Of a stretch of 64,000 nucleotides of DNA, positions 15,968-27,057 are shown piece after piece. The translations under genes and the position numbers were made by a program. Position 1 is the first letter of the stretch; every line of letters begins with the position of its first letter. The notes below the pieces were generated by a model. The model was not told where the DNA came from, made no database searches, and worked only from the letters and a program-made list of their open reading frames with translations. The stretch is taken from contig OZ242260.1 in the NCBI GenBank assembly GCA_965207065.1, positions 3,264,001-3,328,000 on the forward strand, written 5' to 3'. This DNA is from a bacterium (GTDB lineage: Bacteria > UBA8248).

Positions 15968-16927
15968 ATGGCATTGGGCACCCGGGGCCGTCCGCCCCAG
16001 ATTCTGAGGGCGCTTCCCTCGCTCATCGATCGCATCGGAAGCACGAGCCTCGTCCAACTGCAGCGACTGCCAGATGCGTCGGGCGGGCGCGTATTCGCGA
16101 AACTCGAGCAGTACAACCCCGGCGGAAGCGTGAAGGATCGCATCGCGCTCAGCATGGTGCTCGACGCCGAGCGGCGCGGCCTCCTGAAGCCCGGCGGGAC
16201 GATTATCGAACCCACGAGCGGCAACACGGGGATAGGCCTCGCGCTCATCGGCGCCATTCGCGGCTACAGGACGATCATCGTGCTCAGCAAGAGCATGAGC
16301 CACGAGCGCAACTCCCTGCTCACGGGCTACGGGGCCGAGGTGGTATTCAGCTCCAGCGAGGGCGGCATGTACGGCTCGCTCGTGATGGCGGAAGCCATCC
16401 TGGATGAGAACCCGGACTACTACATGCCCCAGCAGTTCAACAACCCGGCCAACCCGGAAATCCACCGCAGAACCACGGCGCGCGAGATTCTGCGCGATAT
16501 GGGCGCGGAATCGGTGGACGCCTTCGTGGCGGGCGTGGGGACGGGAGGCACCATCACGGGCGTGGGGGAGGTCCTGAAGGAGAAGAGGCCGGAAACACTC
16601 GTCGTAGGGGTGGAGCCCGCCGCATCCGCCGTACTCTCGGGCGGGGAGCCGGGCCCGCACCAGATTCAGGGTATCGGCGCGGGATTTATTCCCGCCGTGC
16701 TCAACCGCGCGATCATCGACGAGGTGATGCCGGTGAGCGATTCGGACGCCTACGACATGAGCAAGGCCCTGAGCCGCGAGGAGGGCATGGCCGCGGGCAT
16801 TTCGGCGGGCGCCGCGGTAAGCGCCGCCCTGCAGGTGGCGCGGCGGATGAGTCCCGAGGAAAACGTGGTGGTCGTCATTCCCGACGGCTGGGAGAGATAT
16901 TATAGTCTGGAGCAGCATTTTCGCTAG
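15968..16927 (+). CDS. cysK: Cysteine synthase A-type PLP enzyme
   Basis: NPGGSVKDR, PTSGNTG, QQFNNPAN, GVGTGGT, HQIQGIG motifs. Confidence 0.9.
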   Translation: MALGTRGRPPQILRALPSLIDRIGSTSLVQLQRLPDASGGRVFAKLEQYNPGGSVKDRIALSMVLDAERRGLLKPGGTIIEPTSGNTGIGLALIGAIRGYRTIIVLSKSMSHERNSLLTGYGAEVVFSSSEGGMYGSLVMAEAILDENPDYYMPQQFNNPANPEIHRRTTAREILRDMGAESVDAFVAGVGTGGTITGVGEVLKEKRPETLVVGVEPAASAVLSGGEPGPHQIQGIGAGFIPAVLNRAIIDEVMPVSDSDAYDMSKALSREEGMAAGISAGAAVSAALQVARRMSPEENVVVVIPDGWERYYSLEQHFR

Positions 16928-16980
16928 AAATCTTCATTCGGCATCCCCGGAAGGCGGGGCATTCAGATCAGGAGAGAGAA

Positions 16981-17259
16981 ATGGCGGTAACGGTTCGTAT
17001 TCCGACACCCTTACAGGAGTTCACCCAGCAGCAGGACGCCGTGGATATCGCGGGCGCGGACGTGAAGGAAGTGCTCGCCAACCTCGACAGCCAGTTCGCG
17101 GGCATCGGCCAGCGCCTCTATGACGAAGAGGGTAAGCTCCGACGCTTCGTGAATATCTATGTGAACCAGGAAGACATCCGCTTCCTGCAGGGAGAGGGAA
17201 CGGCGGTGAACGACGGGGATGAGGTCTCCATCGTGCCGGCCATCGCGGGTGGCCGGTAA
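16981..17259 (+). CDS. MoaD/ThiS/CysO-type ubiquitin-like sulfur carrier ending AIAGG-R
   Basis: VRIPTPL...LRRFVNIYVNQEDIRFL...DEVSIVPAIAGGR; GGAGAG RBS. Confidence 0.92.
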   Translation: MAVTVRIPTPLQEFTQQQDAVDIAGADVKEVLANLDSQFAGIGQRLYDEEGKLRRFVNIYVNQEDIRFLQGEGTAVNDGDEVSIVPAIAGGR

Positions 17260-17293
17260 TCGTCCGCAGAACCCCCGAGAGGAGAGTCATCCC

Positions 17294-17944
17294 TTGGGCC
17301 TGAGCGAAGAGCAGATACAGCGCTACAGCCGACACATTCTGCTCCCCGGTGTGGGAGGGGTCGGTCAGGAGCGCTTGCTCGCATCTTCCGTCCTCATTGT
17401 CTTTTCTGAGGATGAGGAGAGCGCGGCGCTCATGGCCCTGGCCTATCTGGCCGCTGCGGGCGTGGGCCGGATCGGCTGGTGTCCTCTGCATGAGAGCGAT
17501 GGATTGAAGCAGGAATCGCCGCTCTGCGCCTTCTATGGCGGCAGCCTGGGCAATGGTCTCAAGAGGCTCAATCCCGATTCGAGGCTGGTTTCCATTCGCC
17601 CGGGTGAGGGAGCGGAAGAGGTTTTCGACGCTCTCGTCTGGCTGGGCGATGCGTCCGCCGAAGATTTCGAGTCATCTAAGTCAATGGGAAAATTCGTCAT
17701 ACGAGGCGGGAGCCGTGGTGAGGCGGGAGAGATTTCAGAAGGCCCCGGAATCCTGGAGAAGCCAGGTATGGCGCCTCAAGGAGGGACAGCCTCGACGGTG
17801 GCGGCCCAGGGAGCTCTGGGCGCATGGCTGGCCGCCAGAACTTTAAGGCATCTGGTGAATGAGACGGATACAGTGGGGTCGACTACGCAGGCCCGTTTCG
17901 ATTTTTCGCATGGCTTGATTGAGGCGCATGCGAACCTTTCCTGA
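17294..17944 (+). CDS. Degenerate (pseudo-enzyme) ThiF/MoeB/E1-family protein
   Basis: TTG start after GAGGAGAG; retains QRYSRHILL, YLAAAGVG and RLNPD; lacks GxGGxG, NLxRQ, DxxDN and CxxC. Confidence 0.75.
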   Translation: MGLSEEQIQRYSRHILLPGVGGVGQERLLASSVLIVFSEDEESAALMALAYLAAAGVGRIGWCPLHESDGLKQESPLCAFYGGSLGNGLKRLNPDSRLVSIRPGEGAEEVFDALVWLGDASAEDFESSKSMGKFVIRGGSRGEAGEISEGPGILEKPGMAPQGGTASTVAAQGALGAWLAARTLRHLVNETDTVGSTTQARFDFSHGLIEAHANLS

Positions 17945-17977
17945 GATTTTCAGGAACAAAGTGCGAGGGCCATATCA

Positions 17978-18916
17978 ATGGTCGAATCGACAGTGGAGAA
18001 TCCGGCGAGTGCGTTCAGAAATCTAGAGGATTCCCCAATCATCAAGTGTATCGGCAACACCCCCTTGCTCGAAATCAAGTTGTTCGAGAGCGAATTCCCG
18101 GAAGTGGAGGTCTACGCCAAGGCGGAGTGGTTCAACCCGGGCGGCTCGGTGAAGGACAGGCCTGCGCTCTTCATGGTGAAGGACGGCCTGGAAACGGGAG
18201 AATTGCGCCCCGGCAAGATTCTGCTCGATTCCACGAGCGGGAACACCGGCATCGCCTACGCCATGATCGGCGCGGCTTTGGGGATTCCCGTCCGCCTCGT
18301 CCTGCCCGCGAATGCGAGCGATGAGCGCAAGGCGACGCTCAAGGGCTACGGGGCCGATATCGTTCTCTCGGACCCCCTGGAGGGTTCCGACGGGGCGCAG
18401 CGCCTCGCGGCGAAGATGCACCGCGAGGAGCCGGAGAAATACTTTCTACCCTGCCAGTACGACAACCCCGCCAACCCGCTCGCCCACGTGGAGACGACGG
18501 CGCCTGAGATTCTGGAGCAGACCGGCGGGCGCGTGGAGCACTTCGTCGCGGGTCTCGGCACCACGGGCACCCTGGTGGGTACGGGGCGCGGCTTGAAGGC
18601 CAAGAAGCCCGACGTCGTGGTTCATGCGGTCATGCCGTCTGAATCGTTTCACGGCCTGGAAGGCATGAAGCACATCCCCACGGCCATTCGACCGGGGATT
18701 TACGATGAGGGCGTGCACGACAACCTGATTCCGGCGGGGACCGAGGAGAGCTACGACCTGGCCGACCGAATCTCGAAAGAAGAGGGCCTCTTCATCGGCC
18801 ATTCGGCGGGGGCCGCGCTCGTGGGCGTGCGCGAAGTGGCGAAGCAGATAGGGAAGGGCGTTATCGTCACCCTGTTTCCCGACGGGGGGGACAGGTACTT
18901 GAGCGAAGCGCGTTAG
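17978..18916 (+). CDS. cysM: CysM-type PLP cysteine synthase (possibly sulfur-carrier-dependent)
   Basis: NPGGSVKDR, DSTSGNTG, QYDNPAN, GLGTTGT motifs; adjacent to Ubl and JAMM genes. Confidence 0.82.
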   Translation: MVESTVENPASAFRNLEDSPIIKCIGNTPLLEIKLFESEFPEVEVYAKAEWFNPGGSVKDRPALFMVKDGLETGELRPGKILLDSTSGNTGIAYAMIGAALGIPVRLVLPANASDERKATLKGYGADIVLSDPLEGSDGAQRLAAKMHREEPEKYFLPCQYDNPANPLAHVETTAPEILEQTGGRVEHFVAGLGTTGTLVGTGRGLKAKKPDVVVHAVMPSESFHGLEGMKHIPTAIRPGIYDEGVHDNLIPAGTEESYDLADRISKEEGLFIGHSAGAALVGVREVAKQIGKGVIVTLFPDGGDRYLSEAR

Positions 18917-18927
18917 GGAGGCTTGAT

Positions 18928-19422
18928 TTGCGTCTGACACTAGAACAGGTGGAGGCGATGCACCGCCACGCGCGCGAGGCGTATCCCGATGAGTGTTGCG
19001 GTTTGATCATCGGCCCTCCGCGGGCGCGAGGGGAGCAAGAAGATACGCTCGCTCTTTTGCCGTGTAAAAACGTACAGAACGAGATGCACGAAAAGGACCC
19101 GGAAATTTATCCCCGGACGGCGCGGCGCGCCTTTTTGATCGATCCCTTCGAGTTCGAACGCATCGCCAGGCGGGCCGAGGAGGCCGGCGAGGTGGTTCGC
19201 GGCATCTTTCACAGCCACCCGGACGAGGACGCCTATTTTTCCCAGGAAGACGTGGATGCGGCGGTTCCTTTCGGGGATATCCCGGCGTTTCCCGATGCCG
19301 AGCACGTCGTCATGAGCGTGCGAGAAGGCGTAGTTCTTGGCCAGAAGGTGTATTCCTGGGACGCGGGGCGCAAAGAATTCGTCGAAAGCGAACTGGAAAT
19401 TCTTGAGGAGGCGGGCGCGTGA
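18928..19422 (+). CDS. JAMM/Mov34/MPN (M67) metalloprotease, Mec+-like
   Basis: YPDECCG and HSHPDEDAYFSQED (E...HxH-x7-S-x2-D). Confidence 0.92.
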   Translation: MRLTLEQVEAMHRHAREAYPDECCGLIIGPPRARGEQEDTLALLPCKNVQNEMHEKDPEIYPRTARRAFLIDPFEFERIARRAEEAGEVVRGIFHSHPDEDAYFSQEDVDAAVPFGDIPAFPDAEHVVMSVREGVVLGQKVYSWDAGRKEFVESELEILEEAGA

Positions 19423-20153
19423 GCGGTAAAAGCGCACTGGCGCGTACATCCGCCCTCATCGTGGGGGTCGGCGGCCTGGGCTGCCCCGCCGCGCTGGCGC
19501 TGGCCGCGTCCGGCGTGGGCCGCGTCGGGCTTGCGGATCACGACGACGTGACGCTCGACAACCTTGCCCGACAGATTCTCCACCGGACCGAAGACGTCGG
19601 CCGCCTGAAGGTGGACTCGGGCGCGGATTCCATATTCAGGCTCTCCGCCGAGGTGGCGGTGGACAAGATTCCCCAGAAACTCACGCGCAAGAACGTCGCC
19701 CGAATCATCGCGCCTTATGACGTCATCGTCGATGGCAGCGACAATCTGGCGACCAAACTCGCGCTGAACGACACGTGCGCCGTAGCGGGCAGGCCGTGGG
19801 TGATGGGGGGTGTTTTGCGCTTTTTCGGCCAGATGATGACGATTCTGCCGGGCAGGAGCGCGTGTCTGAGATGTCTGGTGGGCGAGGAGGGCGCAAATGC
19901 GCGCGGGCTCGATTGCGGGGACGCGGGCGTCTTCGGCGCGGTGGCGGGTTTCGTGGGCATGGCGCAGGCCGCCGACGCGCTGCGGGTTCTGGAGGGGTTC
20001 GAGCCCGCCTGGTCGAACAGGCTGATGACGGCTGATTTTGGGAAAAACGCCGTCGGGAGTGTGCGCGTGGCGCAGGATCCGGATTGTCCCGTCTGCGCGC
20101 TCGCCACGCGCGGGCAAGCGAAATTCCCCATGAAGCGCGGAGCGCTCGCTTAG
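19419..20153 (+). CDS. ThiF/MoeB/E1-like adenylyltransferase lacking the N-terminal RYxRQ helix
   Basis: GVGGLG, NLARQ, DGSDN, CLRC, LDCGDAG, CPVC motifs; in-frame TGA at 19404-19406 rules out a longer N-terminus; GAGGAGG RBS. Confidence 0.9.
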   Translation: MSGKSALARTSALIVGVGGLGCPAALALAASGVGRVGLADHDDVTLDNLARQILHRTEDVGRLKVDSGADSIFRLSAEVAVDKIPQKLTRKNVARIIAPYDVIVDGSDNLATKLALNDTCAVAGRPWVMGGVLRFFGQMMTILPGRSACLRCLVGEEGANARGLDCGDAGVFGAVAGFVGMAQAADALRVLEGFEPAWSNRLMTADFGKNAVGSVRVAQDPDCPVCALATRGQAKFPMKRGALA

Positions 20154-20191
20154 CGAATGGGACCGGGAGAAATGATGAAAGGATGCCGCCG

Positions 20192-20650
20192 ATGAAGATA
20201 TCGACCAAGGGACGATACGCCGTGCTCGCCATGATAGAGTTGGCCAGGCATTCGCAGACGCATCCCGTTCCCTTGCCGCAGATAGCGGGCAAACTCGGCA
20301 TCAGCCAGCATTATCTCGAACAGTTATTCGTGAAAATGCGCAGGGCTTCTCTGGTGAGCAGCACGCGGGGGCCGGGAGGCGGCTATATCCTGGCGCTCCC
20401 GCCTTCCGGGATCAACATGCGCGATGTTTTGTGCGCGGTAGGAGAGACGATTCAGCCCGTCGATTGCGGCGATGAATCTCCTTCGGCGCCGTGTCCGAAC
20501 ATTCCTGTATGCGGGAGCCGCGCGCTTTGGAAAAAACTCGAAGACGCGATTGACAAGACGCTGCGCGAGACCACGCTCGAAGAGTTGAGCGCGGCGTCTG
20601 CCGATGCGGGAGGTGGCGTTCGGCTGCCGAATTTCCAGGTGAGTATCTAG
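20192..20650 (+). CDS. Rrf2-family transcriptional regulator (IscR/CymR-like)
   Basis: MKISTKGRYA, YLEQLF, STRGPGGGY; three C-terminal Cys. Confidence 0.92.
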   Translation: MKISTKGRYAVLAMIELARHSQTHPVPLPQIAGKLGISQHYLEQLFVKMRRASLVSSTRGPGGGYILALPPSGINMRDVLCAVGETIQPVDCGDESPSAPCPNIPVCGSRALWKKLEDAIDKTLRETTLEELSAASADAGGGVRLPNFQVSI

Positions 20651-24285: not shown

Positions 24286-25530
24286 TCAACGGAAAGAGCA
24301 GGGCGGCAAGTTGCTCATCGAGGGATGCACGCGCCTTTTGCCCCTGTGCTGCAGACCGAGGCTCATCTGCGTGGCGAGCACGGGTTCGGGCCCCAGGCGT
24401 TTGCCGCGCAGCATGAGCCAGCCCGCCGCTGATTTGCGGATGCGGCCCATGCGCGTCAGATCCCTGAAATCGCGAATGTGCGCCTTTTTGCGCACCTCGA
24501 CCAGGCGCTTCGCCCAGGTGGGGCCGACCCCCGGCACGCGCATGAGCGTCCGGGGGTCCGCCGTCATGATCTCCACCGGAAACTGCGAGAGATTCCGCCT
24601 CGCCCACGTCGTTTTCGGGTCTTCATCTAGGGCCAGGTTTCCTTCCGAGGCGGGAATCTCATCCAGCCCGAAGTCATATTCGCGCAGGAGGTGCTCCGCC
24701 TGATAAAGCCTGTGCTCGCGCGTCTTGGAGACAGACGGCACCCCGTCCATCGGGGTGTCCTCCACGGGTTTGAAGGCGCTGAAGTGGGTGTGGCGCAAAA
24801 GGCCCTTTTTCTGGAGCGAGTGGGAAGATTTGAGCACGTCCATATCGCTCTCCCCGCTGGCGCCGACGATGAACTGCGTCGTCACGCCGCCCTTGATGAG
24901 GCCCGTTCTCTCAAAAAACGATTCGCGCGCCAGCTCCCCCACATAACGGAGGGCGGGTTTGAGGTCTGATTCCAGCTTTTTCTCGGGCGCCATGGCGTGG
25001 AGACCCCGCTGGGTGGCAGCTTCGAGGTTCACTGATAGCCTCGTGGCTATCTGGGCTGCGCGGCCGAGCTGGGAATCCTCCACTCCCGGCAGCATTTTCA
25101 AGTGGATATAGCCGTTAAAATGATGCTTGAAGCGCAGGATTTCCGCCGTGGCGATCATCCTGTCCACGCCCGTGACGCCGCTGCCCGGAATCCCGCTGGT
25201 GAGGAAAAGCCCCTCGGCGCGGTTTCTCTTCCTGAGCGCCATAAAGGTGCCGGCCAGCTCCTCGGGGCTGAAGGAGTGGCGCGGCATGTTGCGAGAAGCG
25301 CGCATGGGGCAGTAGTGGCAGTCGTAGCTGCAGGCGTTCGTCATCATGGTGGAGAGAAGCGGCATGATGCGCCCGCCCTTGAAGGGGACCGGAAATATCG
25401 CCGGCGTGTCCGAAGCCAGGAACTTGCGGCGATATTTGGGGTGTTTCCGCACCCCGGGCGGGCCCTCCCTGTCATCAAAGGATTGTCCGCCGAGTATGGC
25501 CAGTTTGTGGAGGGTTTTTTCCGTCACCAT
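24286..25530 (-). CDS. Putative DNA modification/repair radical SAM protein with helix-hairpin-helix (TIGR03916-like)
   Basis: MTNACSYDCHYC, EGLFLTSG, GYIHLK, REHRLYQA and RVPGVG HhH motifs. Confidence 0.85.
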   Translation of the reverse strand: MVTEKTLHKLAILGGQSFDDREGPPGVRKHPKYRRKFLASDTPAIFPVPFKGGRIMPLLSTMMTNACSYDCHYCPMRASRNMPRHSFSPEELAGTFMALRKRNRAEGLFLTSGIPGSGVTGVDRMIATAEILRFKHHFNGYIHLKMLPGVEDSQLGRAAQIATRLSVNLEAATQRGLHAMAPEKKLESDLKPALRYVGELARESFFERTGLIKGGVTTQFIVGASGESDMDVLKSSHSLQKKGLLRHTHFSAFKPVEDTPMDGVPSVSKTREHRLYQAEHLLREYDFGLDEIPASEGNLALDEDPKTTWARRNLSQFPVEIMTADPRTLMRVPGVGPTWAKRLVEVRKKAHIRDFRDLTRMGRIRKSAAGWLMLRGKRLGPEPVLATQMSLGLQHRGKRRVHPSMSNLPPCSFR

Positions 25531-25806: not shown

Positions 25807-27057
25807 TCAGGCGCCGTTTTTTCGCCAGGATGCGCGTGCCCGCTTGAAGGCCTCGATATCGGGCGGAATGCGGCCCGGCCTGCCGAGGGCCTCGCTCGCC
25901 ACTTCCGTCGCGTTCTTGCCCGTGCCCGTGCCGATGCAGACGATTACTTCATCGGCTTCAGGTCGTTCGGGCCGCTCGGCGCCCTCCATCAGACTCGCCA
26001 CGGAAGCCGCCGAGGCCGGTTGCAGGAAAAGACCCTCACGTCCGGCGATCTGGAACTCGGCTTCCAGGTTCATCGCATCGTTCACGAGCACGCCGTGGCC
26101 TTCGGAGCGCCGCACAACTGCGGCCACGCGCTCGCCCGCGCCGGGGGAGGGACTCGTGAGGCCGGCTGATTTCGTGCGCACCTCGCCCCAGGGCTCGACC
26201 TTCCCGCCCGTATGCAGCGCCTTGACGATGGGCGCACAGCCGTCGACCTGCACGATGTCGATGGCCGGCATCCTGTCTATCCAGCCCAGCGCCAGCAGTT
26301 CGCGGAATCCCTGGTCCATAGCGAGCGCCATCGTGCCGCCCGCCGTGGGGCAGACGACGCGGTCGGGCGCGCGCCAGCCGAGTTTTTCGGCGATCTCATA
26401 GGCAGCCGTTTTCTTGCCCTCGATTCTGTACAAATTCCGGGGGAGGGTGGCGTGCAAACAGCCGAGTTCCTTGGATACTTCTTCTGCGAAGCGCCCGCCC
26501 GTGCCCTGATCGCCCTCGATGATAAGCGTGAATGCCCCGTAAGCGCCGACTTGTAGGCAATGGACGGCGGAGCTGTCGTCGCGCACGAAGCCGATGAACT
26601 CAATGCCTCCCCGCGCGCAGTAGGCGCTGAAACAGGCGGCGGCGTTGCCGGATGAGGGCAGCACGATGCGGTCGACCCCCACCTCCCTGCACTTGCTGAT
26701 GGTGACGGAACCGCCCCTGTCCTTGAACGAGCCCGTGGGGTTTCTCGATTCATCCAGGATGTAGAGGTTTTTGTAACCGAGAGACGTTCCCAGCCTTTCC
26801 GCATGGATGAGAGGGGTGTCGCCCTCGACGAGCGAGACGACGTTCTTCTCATCGCGTACGGGCAAGAGTTCGCGCCAGCGCCAGATGCCCCGGGGTCTGC
26901 GGGCGACTTTGTCCCTGTCCACGTTCGTCTTTATCCACTCGACGTCGTAGCAGCCCTGCAGGTTCCCGCCCGTGTCTGGACAGGTGAAGGGGTGTTCCAT
27001 GTCGTCCACGATGTGTCCGGATTCGAGGCTCAAAAGGCCTTTCAGCGCGCTATGCAA
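25807..27057 (-). CDS. Threonine synthase-like PLP (fold II) enzyme
   Basis: EGDTPL, NPTGSFKDRG, SSGNAA, EGKKT, TGTGK motifs. Confidence 0.85.
   Translation of the reverse strand: MHSALKGLLSLESGHIVDDMEHPFTCPDTGGNLQGCYDVEWIKTNVDRDKVARRPRGIWRWRELLPVRDEKNVVSLVEGDTPLIHAERLGTSLGYKNLYILDESRNPTGSFKDRGGSVTISKCREVGVDRIVLPSSGNAAACFSAYCARGGIEFIGFVRDDSSAVHCLQVGAYGAFTLIIEGDQGTGGRFAEEVSKELGCLHATLPRNLYRIEGKKTAAYEIAEKLGWRAPDRVVCPTAGGTMALAMDQGFRELLALGWIDRMPAIDIVQVDGCAPIVKALHTGGKVEPWGEVRTKSAGLTSPSPGAGERVAAVVRRSEGHGVLVNDAMNLEAEFQIAGREGLFLQPASAASVASLMEGAERPERPEADEVIVCIGTGTGKNATEVASEALGRPGRIPPDIEAFKRARASWRKNGA

Follow-up and report, generated by a model that had tools for sequence, protein, structure and literature searches.

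A 64,000-nucleotide stretch of DNA from a bacterium of the GTDB lineage UBA8248 (here called the window; GenBank assembly GCA_965207065.1, contig OZ242260.1, positions 3,264,001 to 3,328,000 of the forward strand) contains, at positions 15968–20650 on its forward strand, seven tightly packed genes in the order cysK-cysO-E1i-cysM-mec-E1a-rrf2. Two of these genes encode paralogous E1-like proteins of the ThiF/MoeB type. One, E1i, has lost the motifs of the active site, and the other, E1a, has kept them and has lost its N-terminal helix. The question raised by this locus is why one operon should encode two E1-like proteins, each defective in what the other retains. The first-pass annotation of the window had proposed that they form an obligate heterodimer of an inactive and an active subunit. 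From the comparative sequence data and a structure model of the complex, it appears likely that E1i and E1a do form a functional heterodimeric E1.

E1i is encoded at 17294–17944 on the forward strand as a catalytically dead, 216-residue paralogue of the ThiF/MoeB fold, and is the proposed inactive subunit. Residues 10–14 read RYSRH, the stretch FSEDEESA occupies the site of the GxGGxG glycine loop, NLxRQ, DxxDN and CxxC are absent, and the sole cysteines are residues 63 and 79. The glycine loop, NLxRQ, DxxDN and CxxC are likewise missing from all orthologues of the same family (f1). A Pfam search gave no match to E1i at E ≤ 0.01, ThiF (PF00899) included, and the NCBIfam models for MoeB, MoeZ and UbaA covered about 60 N-terminal residues (approximately 23–89 of a longer, 241-residue frame) with scores far under their cut-offs. 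The AlphaFold2 model of E1i had a predicted local distance difference test score (pLDDT) of 74.1 and a predicted template modelling score (pTM) of 0.76. Foldseek placed Uba4 (6yub), ThiF (1zud, 1zfn) and MoeB (1jwa, 1jw9) at the top of its matches to this model (E values from 7e-12 to 3.5e-10, TMq 0.64–0.69), followed by chains of SAE1, the inactive subunit of the SUMO E1. By this prediction, E1i has the Rossmann-like adenylation fold of the E1 proteins.

The start of E1i is marked by a ribosome-binding stretch, gagaggagag, and a TTG codon (17277–17296). TTG is the start codon in 27 of the 30 complete orthologues, and all orthologues have an in-frame stop 2–28 codons upstream of the start. For these reasons the 216-residue protein, and not the 241-residue open reading frame (ORF) that begins at the ATG at 17219, is the conserved reading. 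The conserved weak start may set the ratio of E1i to E1a.

A word-indexed search with E1i returned 3267 proteins at E ≤ 1e-3, among which the matches at 38–99% full-length identity were small proteins, several of them named by their source as hypothetical proteins of Nitrospinae/Nitrospinota. When 1.84 billion representatives were searched exhaustively without a profile, only 18 matches reached E ≤ 1e-10. Genes of the E1i type carry the database name "hypothetical" or, wrongly, adenylyltransferase. The ORF is intact in all 31 orthologues, which are about 210–234 residues long and differ down to 38% identity. Across these 31 sequences 29 columns are invariant, including R10, Y11, S12, H14, G21, G24 and Q25, and the N-terminal segment has the consensus QRYSRHILLPxVGGxGQ. 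Residue 13 is arginine in 29 of the 31 proteins and histidine (RYSHH) in the other two (L054 and L056, from genomes G046 and G050). L055, from a congener of these two species, retains the arginine. Arg13 is presumably the counterpart of the MoeB/ThiF arginine finger, an assignment that we base on the alignment, on the MoeB numbering and on the account in PMC13139853.

E1a is encoded at 19419–20153 on the forward strand. It is an intact adenylation domain of 244 residues, the proposed active subunit, and a member of the Pfam ThiF family (PF00899; E 3.3e-60), matching profile positions 14–238 of 238 with 203.6 bits against a cut-off of 28.1. The motifs GVGGLG, DHD, NLARQ, K64, DGSDN, two CxxC and the crossover-loop cysteine, Cys166, are all retained and are invariant or nearly so in 26 orthologues. 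Among the single residues expected of a competent E1, G16, G18, G19, G21, N48, R51, Q52, K64 and D108 are invariant or at least 90% conserved in these 26 sequences. Catalytic roles were assigned to the motifs from Gly41, Arg73, Lys86 and Asp130 of MoeB, as given in the part of a 2025 review that was covered. There is no rhodanese domain, so E1a is not a rhodanese-fused MoeZ-type enzyme, and Pfam detects no additional domain of any other kind.

The part that E1a lacks is the stretch of about 24 N-terminal residues that carries the RYxRQ helix in ordinary family members. Its GTG start overlaps the stop codon of mec (GTGA), and the start region (19404–19421) consists of an in-frame TGA at 19404–19406, the sequence GAGGAGG 7 nucleotides upstream of the start, and the GTG itself at 19419–19421. 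Because of the TGA, the gene cannot extend upstream. No RYxRQ helix was found in the open frame upstream of E1a in any of 28 orthologues. In 13 relatives (L037, L040–L049, L051 and L052), mec and E1a do not overlap, being about 60–80 nucleotides apart (75 in 10 of them); this gap is open in the frame of E1a, reading for example ...VSLHNPRARLPDEAPPASVSASTAR-M, and contains no RYxRQ. It may lengthen the N-terminus of E1a slightly or serve as a spacer. The first-pass annotation had described E1i as keeping RYSRH and having lost its catalytic and nucleotide-binding motifs, and E1a as keeping all of these, beginning just before β1 and having no mis-called start. The motif reading and the alignment of 31 orthologues bear out the former description, and the TGA and the start of the Pfam match at profile position 14 the latter. 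The operon encodes, as two separate polypeptides, one dead and one active E1-fold protein.

The complementary defects could be a peculiarity of one genome, or they could be inherited together. In a sample of 51 species genomes from the phylum of the window, full-length E1i was present in 30, and one more genome (G009) gave a partial match broken by the end of a contig; 31 E1i loci were fetched. E1a was present, with the seven genes in the same order as in the window, in all 28 loci that were long enough to show it, the other three ending earlier at contig ends. Eleven further genomes have a close orthologue of mec (51–80% identity) in an operon of the form cysK-cysO-cysM-mec-rrf2, from which both E1 genes are missing. 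In these pair-less operons, the junction of mec with rrf2 was visible in all 11 and that of cysO with cysM in 10. The sole ThiF-family match in 10 of the 11 genomes was a MoeZ-type frame of 400–609 residues with 37–40% identity to E1a, and a ThiF-family search of the eleventh (G043) gave no match. In one pair-less locus (L090, genome G038), just the last 70 or so residues of CysM were matched between cysO and mec, which may reflect a truncated cysM. When the pair is mapped on a maximum-likelihood tree of the five proteins common to these operons, its distribution requires five changes, at least three of which are forced by branches with Shimodaira–Hasegawa-like approximate likelihood ratio (SH-aLRT) support of 95 or more, and both E1 genes change jointly at every one of them.

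The complementary defects themselves recur in 30 E1a/E1i pairs in this phylum and in 31 pairs in a second clade described below (61 in total), and because they recur in both clades, they represent more than chance. A partial stage was seen in G009, which belongs to another family of the same order and in which two contigs overlap inside the E1i homologue. This E1i retains GLGGVG and both CxxC motifs and lacks DxD/NLxRQ and the aspartate of DxxDN, and the E1a of the same operon is already without its helix. Degeneration of E1i therefore continued once the partnership existed.

Selection on the pair was estimated from the ratio of nonsynonymous to synonymous substitution rates (dN/dS) by the pairwise method of Nei and Gojobori (NG86), using 298 pairs with a cysM dS of 0.1–1.2, which are not independent of one another. 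For whole genes, dN/dS was 0.36 for E1i (interquartile range 0.31–0.41), 0.22 for E1a and 0.08–0.12 for cysK, cysO, cysM, mec and rrf2. The values differ along E1i, from 0.14 for residues 2–32 and 0.26 for residues 33–65 to 0.47 for residues 66–165 and 0.35 for residues 166–216. Residues of the modelled interface (see below) had lower values than the rest of the protein, with 0.22 against 0.43 in E1i and 0.17 against 0.27 in E1a. E1i is under purifying selection and is a conserved gene, not a relic. The first-pass annotation had asked of the degenerate gene whether it is absent or neutrally decaying in related operons. It does not occur apart from E1a, both genes being found in every one of the 28 loci of sufficient length and neither of them in 11 others, and it is not decaying, as seen from the 31 intact reading frames and from a dN/dS that is well constrained in the region of the N-terminal helix.

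The complex was modelled from E1a (26-row alignment), E1i (31-row alignment) and ATP in three runs. The interface score ipSAE was 0.92 in each run, against 0.00 for the highest-scoring of three controls; in calibration, 58 of 80 solved complexes attained the mark used for this score, as did 2 of 110 mismatched pairs. The three runs agreed in at least 95% of their contacts, and the pLDDT of the partner was 80–81. On the E1i side, the modelled interface comprises residues 6, 9–14, 16–18 and 20, all in the N-terminal helix, and a long helix at 166–185; on the E1a side, it comprises residues 46–47, 49–51, 53 and 56–58, in the NLARQ region, and a long helix at 169–189. This is the canonical geometry of an E1 dimer, as far as the model can be trusted. 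A heterodimer prediction was among the checks put forward in the first-pass annotation, and the helix of E1i is indeed placed against the NLARQ region of E1a, although this placement may be a memory of the MoeB and ThiF dimers. The model shows that the pair is compatible with a canonical-type E1 dimer, not that such a dimer is formed.

More distant matches to E1i included about ten metagenomic ThiF-like proteins of 200–240 residues that contain ERYSRQ and have no glycine loop. One of these (P0127) lies in genome G051 within the gene order E1a-cysO-cysM-E1i-cysD. The E1a of this module is a 257-residue ThiF protein whose Pfam match begins at position 18 and which has no RYxRQ helix. Its CysO ends exactly in GG, and the genome contains a separate full-length MoeZ-type gene as well. 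The E1i of this second clade scores 65.2 bits against the Pfam ThiF profile. Within the order that contains G051, the degenerate protein was matched in 49 of 56 genomes at E ≤ 1e-25. The remaining seven, in which E1a seemed to lack an E1i at this threshold, were considered as counter-examples and rejected, since cysO is accompanied in every one of them by a more divergent E1i. In this order, a helix-less E1a and a degenerate E1i with RYSRQ are found in all 31 loci examined (22 + 9). The second-clade module lacks mec, as would suit a CysO whose GG end is already mature. Six of its loci (L192–L194 and L196–L198) have no cysM match between cysO and E1i and about 1.5–2 kb between E1a and cysO; their module may serve another pyridoxal 5'-phosphate (PLP) enzyme.

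Six genomes of the same phylum sample (G127, G099, G053, G115, G184 and G074) also have two E1 genes grouped around cysO and cysM in one operon, and in all six both copies are intact and have the helix. Since the helix persists where both E1s are intact, loss of the helix and loss of the active site go together. These operons may hold two carrier systems, or they may represent the state of the pair before degeneration. The operon of G127 (L130) also has a gene resembling threonine synthase; the other two-E1 operons are L201–L205. A metagenome scan with P0163 returned solely an ordinary E1 of archaeal type (L097), at 27% identity.

By BLAST, no intact E1 is as near to the E1i of the window as the second-clade E1i is (38% identity over 147 residues, E 3e-21). 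In E1 trees of 51 and 59 sequences, all degenerate proteins fell on one side of a branch with SH-aLRT support of 98–99. The E1a proteins of both clades grouped together with support of 96 in the first tree, and this grouping was not resolved in the second. Among the operons with two intact E1s, only the upstream E1 of G127 groups with the second-clade E1a (support 94). Because the degenerate branches are long and the second tree leaves the E1a grouping open, we claim neither a single origin nor that the two-E1 operons are direct ancestors. Our tentative view, held with somewhat less than even confidence, is that E1a and E1i represent an old, laterally spread family of two-gene bacterial E1s for CysO-type carriers, which has members in two or more lineages of phylum rank, and probably others in metagenomic lineages, and which arose by complementary degeneration of two intact paralogues in one operon.

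How would such a pair work? We propose that E1i and E1a are one asymmetric E1-like enzyme that would adenylate the C-terminal glycine of CysO after trimming by Mec. E1a would supply the single ATP/Mg site, the catalytic arginine, lysine and aspartate, the zinc site and the crossover-loop cysteine, and E1i would be a pseudoenzyme that retains the Rossmann-like scaffold for dimerisation. The N-terminal helix of E1i would pack in trans on the nucleotide site of E1a and replace the helix that E1a has lost, giving one active site per dimer, and the thiocarboxylate of CysO would then feed CysM. Heterodimerisation, the role of the helix and its arginine in trans, CysO as the substrate and the source of the sulfur are what we infer from these data. 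It is more likely that E1i contributes the whole helix and the dimer scaffold than a lone arginine. As E1a has no rhodanese domain, a separate persulfide donor would be needed.

Several points weigh against a heterodimeric E1. The modelling job was unlike those used for calibration, having custom alignments and a ligand, and since dimers of MoeB, ThiF and eukaryotic E1s are among the solved structures, the model may have passed through likeness to these alone. Related genomes are not independent, and the co-occurrence comes down to three to five joint gain or loss events. E1i evolves faster than any neighbouring gene. The only sequencing run recorded as RNA (X3) yielded two short contigs, on cysK and cysO only. 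Finally, the arginine finger itself may be dispensable. According to the parts of PMC13139853 that were covered, the fingers of MoeB (Arg14) and ThiF (Arg11) touch the ATP of the neighbouring subunit and are not essential (citing Lake 2001 and Nagy 2016), E. coli TcdA has no arginine-finger residue, and in the yeast protein Tcd1 the R59A substitution cut the product by 26% only. These findings, together with the histidine at position 13 in two of the 31 E1i proteins, are what might be expected if E1a were active alone as a helix-less homodimer and E1i were an accessory protein, for instance a scaffold for CysO or CysM or a chaperone of the carrier, tied to E1a through their shared module. E1a has after all kept every catalytic residue, and joint loss of the two genes would also be expected if a MoeZ-type enzyme had replaced the module as a whole. 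However, an accessory role leaves unexplained why the best-conserved part of E1i is the very segment that E1a has lost, and why loss of the helix is coupled to loss of the active site in the 61 pairs, whereas the six operons whose two E1s are intact show neither. The modelled interface is, moreover, canonical and under stronger constraint than the remainder of E1i. We therefore regard an accessory E1i as unlikely. The heterodimeric E1 that the first-pass annotation had proposed holds up as far as the pairing of an inactive with an active subunit is concerned, for which the comparative evidence speaks, and is weaker in the idea that the pair is obligate because of the arginine.

A heterodimer might also exist in order to restrain the enzyme. 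E1i could be a dominant-negative, regulatory subunit that lowers or gates the activation of CysO, for example through the adjacent Rrf2 regulator. Heterodimerisation, which the model supports, would suit such a subunit, as would the conserved weak TTG start, which suggests a tuned and low expression, and the authors of the Tcd1–Tcd2 study speculate about fine-tuning of this kind in the covered part of their paper (PMC13139853). In an inhibitor, though, a trans-acting N-terminal helix would not need to be the region conserved most strongly, nothing would select for loss of the helix from E1a in every lineage with E1i, and the overlapping or closely spaced reading frames of a single operon point to co-expression. 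This explanation seems to us quite improbable. Finally, with all catalytic motifs gone, the highest dN/dS in the operon and no recognition by Pfam, E1i might be taken for the functionless, decaying remnant of a duplicated E1 gene. An ORF that is intact in 31 of 31 orthologues with 29 invariant columns and a constrained N-terminus, a confidently predicted E1 fold and a homologous degenerate partner that is conserved throughout the second clade make this hardly credible. A heterodimeric E1 is left as the explanation that we favour.

The other genes of the operon, all on the forward strand, are those of a CysO/CysM/Mec pathway, in which a JAMM protease and a PLP enzyme of the CysM type occur together with a ThiS-family carrier that extends past its GG. 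The first gene, here and in all related operons, is a cysK-type O-acetylserine sulfhydrylase (15968–16927; Pfam PALP, E 3.8e-76; NCBIfam cysK TIGR01139, 400.7 bits, above cut-off). It is followed by cysO (16981–17259; Pfam ThiS, E 1.7e-17), a ubiquitin-like sulfur carrier of the ThiS/MoaD family with 92 residues. CysO ends in VPAIAGGR, that is, AIAGG plus one additional residue. In orthologues the tail past GG varies (R, L, LY, VG, G or C, and 10 residues in L051), as would be expected if Mec cleaves it off. The cysM-type cysteine synthase (17978–18916; Pfam PALP, E 2.8e-63) has cysM TIGR01138 as its best NCBIfam model, with 340.8 bits, under the cut-off of 394; it is presumed to be the user of the CysO thiocarboxylate. 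The JAMM/JAB metalloprotease gene mec (18928–19422; Pfam Prok-JAB, E 1e-19) presumably encodes the enzyme that trims CysO to its GG end. An Rrf2-family (IscR/CymR-like) regulator (20192–20650, start approximate; Pfam Rrf2, E 2.7e-35; rrf2_super, 123 bits, above cut-off) is the last conserved gene of the operon, in a position that is itself conserved. Among the ORFs of the operon, Pfam identified no E2-like gene. The genome of the window (one contig of 4.48 Mb) has a single further ThiF-family gene, a 438-residue frame in which a rhodanese domain at the N-terminus is joined to a full-length MoeB domain, RYSRH helix included.

Contigs of 151–269 nucleotides from two sequencing runs, X1 and X2, whose RNA status was guessed, matched E1i, the E1i/cysM junction, cysM, mec, the mec/E1a junction and E1a. 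The record of X3, which covers parts of the operon at a low share, describes an RNA-Seq library from a sponge metagenome. On the opposite strand, a few kb downstream of these genes, lie ORFs of 416 residues (25807–27057) and 414 residues (24286–25530), which by eye resemble a threonine-synthase-like PLP enzyme and a radical-SAM-like protein, respectively.

The splitting of an E1 between an inactive adenylation domain (IAD) and an active one (AAD) is usually presented as a step from the bacterial MoeB/ThiF homodimers to the eukaryotic E1s of ubiquitin, SUMO and NEDD8. The bacterial IAD/AAD case found in the covered parts of the literature is the fused, antiviral BilD only. If our reading is true, a two-gene pair in a housekeeping cysteine pathway, present in dozens of species of two distant clades, means that such asymmetry evolves without E2s or conjugation. 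If the pair also represents an old family, the IAD/AAD hallmark of eukaryotic E1s arose in bacterial sulfur metabolism, independently of ubiquitin-type conjugation, and its living intermediates would be G009, with its half-degenerate E1i, and the G127-type operons with two intact E1s. With about 460 residues and its natural intermediates, the pair would be a small and tractable system for asking what a trans-acting helix and its arginine contribute, why having only one active site in a dimer is tolerated or favoured, and how obligate pseudoenzyme partners originate by complementary loss.

A full-text literature search found no description of such an E1 pair, with the limit that supplements and Burroughs et al. 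2009 lay outside its coverage, so that an earlier mention is possible. The reviews, in the parts covered, make no mention of a prokaryotic two-subunit E1. Iyer et al. 2006, also covered in part, describe operons of ThiS, JAB, E1 and cysteine synthase (types 4c and 4d) with a rhodanese-fused E1, and the covered text does not mention a second, dead E1 for them. The statements on known systems that follow likewise refer to the covered parts of the cited papers. A close metabolic parallel is the mycobacterial CysO-CysM-Mec pathway, in which a ThiS-family CysO, a CysM-type PLP enzyme and the JAMM protease Mec are also encoded in one operon (PMC3227635). There, however, the E1 is a single rhodanese-fused MoeZ(R) that is encoded elsewhere, whereas here a rhodanese-less E1a within the operon and E1i are added. 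With MoeB and ThiF of E. coli, E1a shares the fold, GxGGxG, NLxRQ, the lysine, DxxDN, the four cysteines and the crossover loop, as well as a carrier of the ThiS/MoaD type that ends in GG. Those proteins are symmetric homodimers with two complete sites and a helix in each subunit (2025 review), whereas here these elements are split over two genes.

It is probable, by analogy, that E1i and E1a work like the known asymmetric pairs. Yeast Tcd1–Tcd2, the ct6A dehydratase, is a ThiF-fold heterodimer in which Tcd1 is proposed to be inactive and to complete the site of Tcd2 with its Arg59 finger, and the two proteins need each other for function and solubility (PMC13139853). Unlike E1i and E1a, this pair is eukaryotic, is anchored in the mitochondrial membrane and acts on tRNA, and Tcd2 is not reported there to lack its helix. 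In bacteria, BilD of the Bil antiviral ubiquitination operons is a pseudo-dimer of IAD and AAD with one active site that contains Arg9 of the IAD, and all other known bacterial E1-like proteins are stated to be homodimers (PMC10557695). BubCD, too, is a homodimer. A eukaryote-like architecture in a bacterial sulfur-carrier pathway, as claimed in the first-pass annotation, is supported, but it has a partial bacterial precedent in the fused IAD-AAD of BilD. BilD differs in being one fused polypeptide whose Cys domain is mobile, with an E2 partner and a function in phage defence, whereas the present pair consists of two genes, has no Cys domain and belongs to primary metabolism. The proposed arrangement also resembles that of NAE1(APPBP1)–UBA3, for NEDD8, and SAE1–SAE2, for SUMO, in which two separate chains of the MoeB/ThiF fold, an IAD and an AAD, form a pseudo-dimer with one active site, and in which, according to reviews, the N-terminal arginine of the IAD lies at the AAD site. 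Since it has no Cys domain, UFD or E2, the bacterial pair falls outside the canonical E1 family: FCCH/SCCH, UFD and E2 are all missing, the crossover loop is short and has the single Cys166, and what it makes is presumably a thiocarboxylate destined for cysteine synthesis instead of a protein conjugate. It also differs from the eukaryotic enzymes in that its proposed active subunit, E1a, has lost its own N-terminal helix outright.

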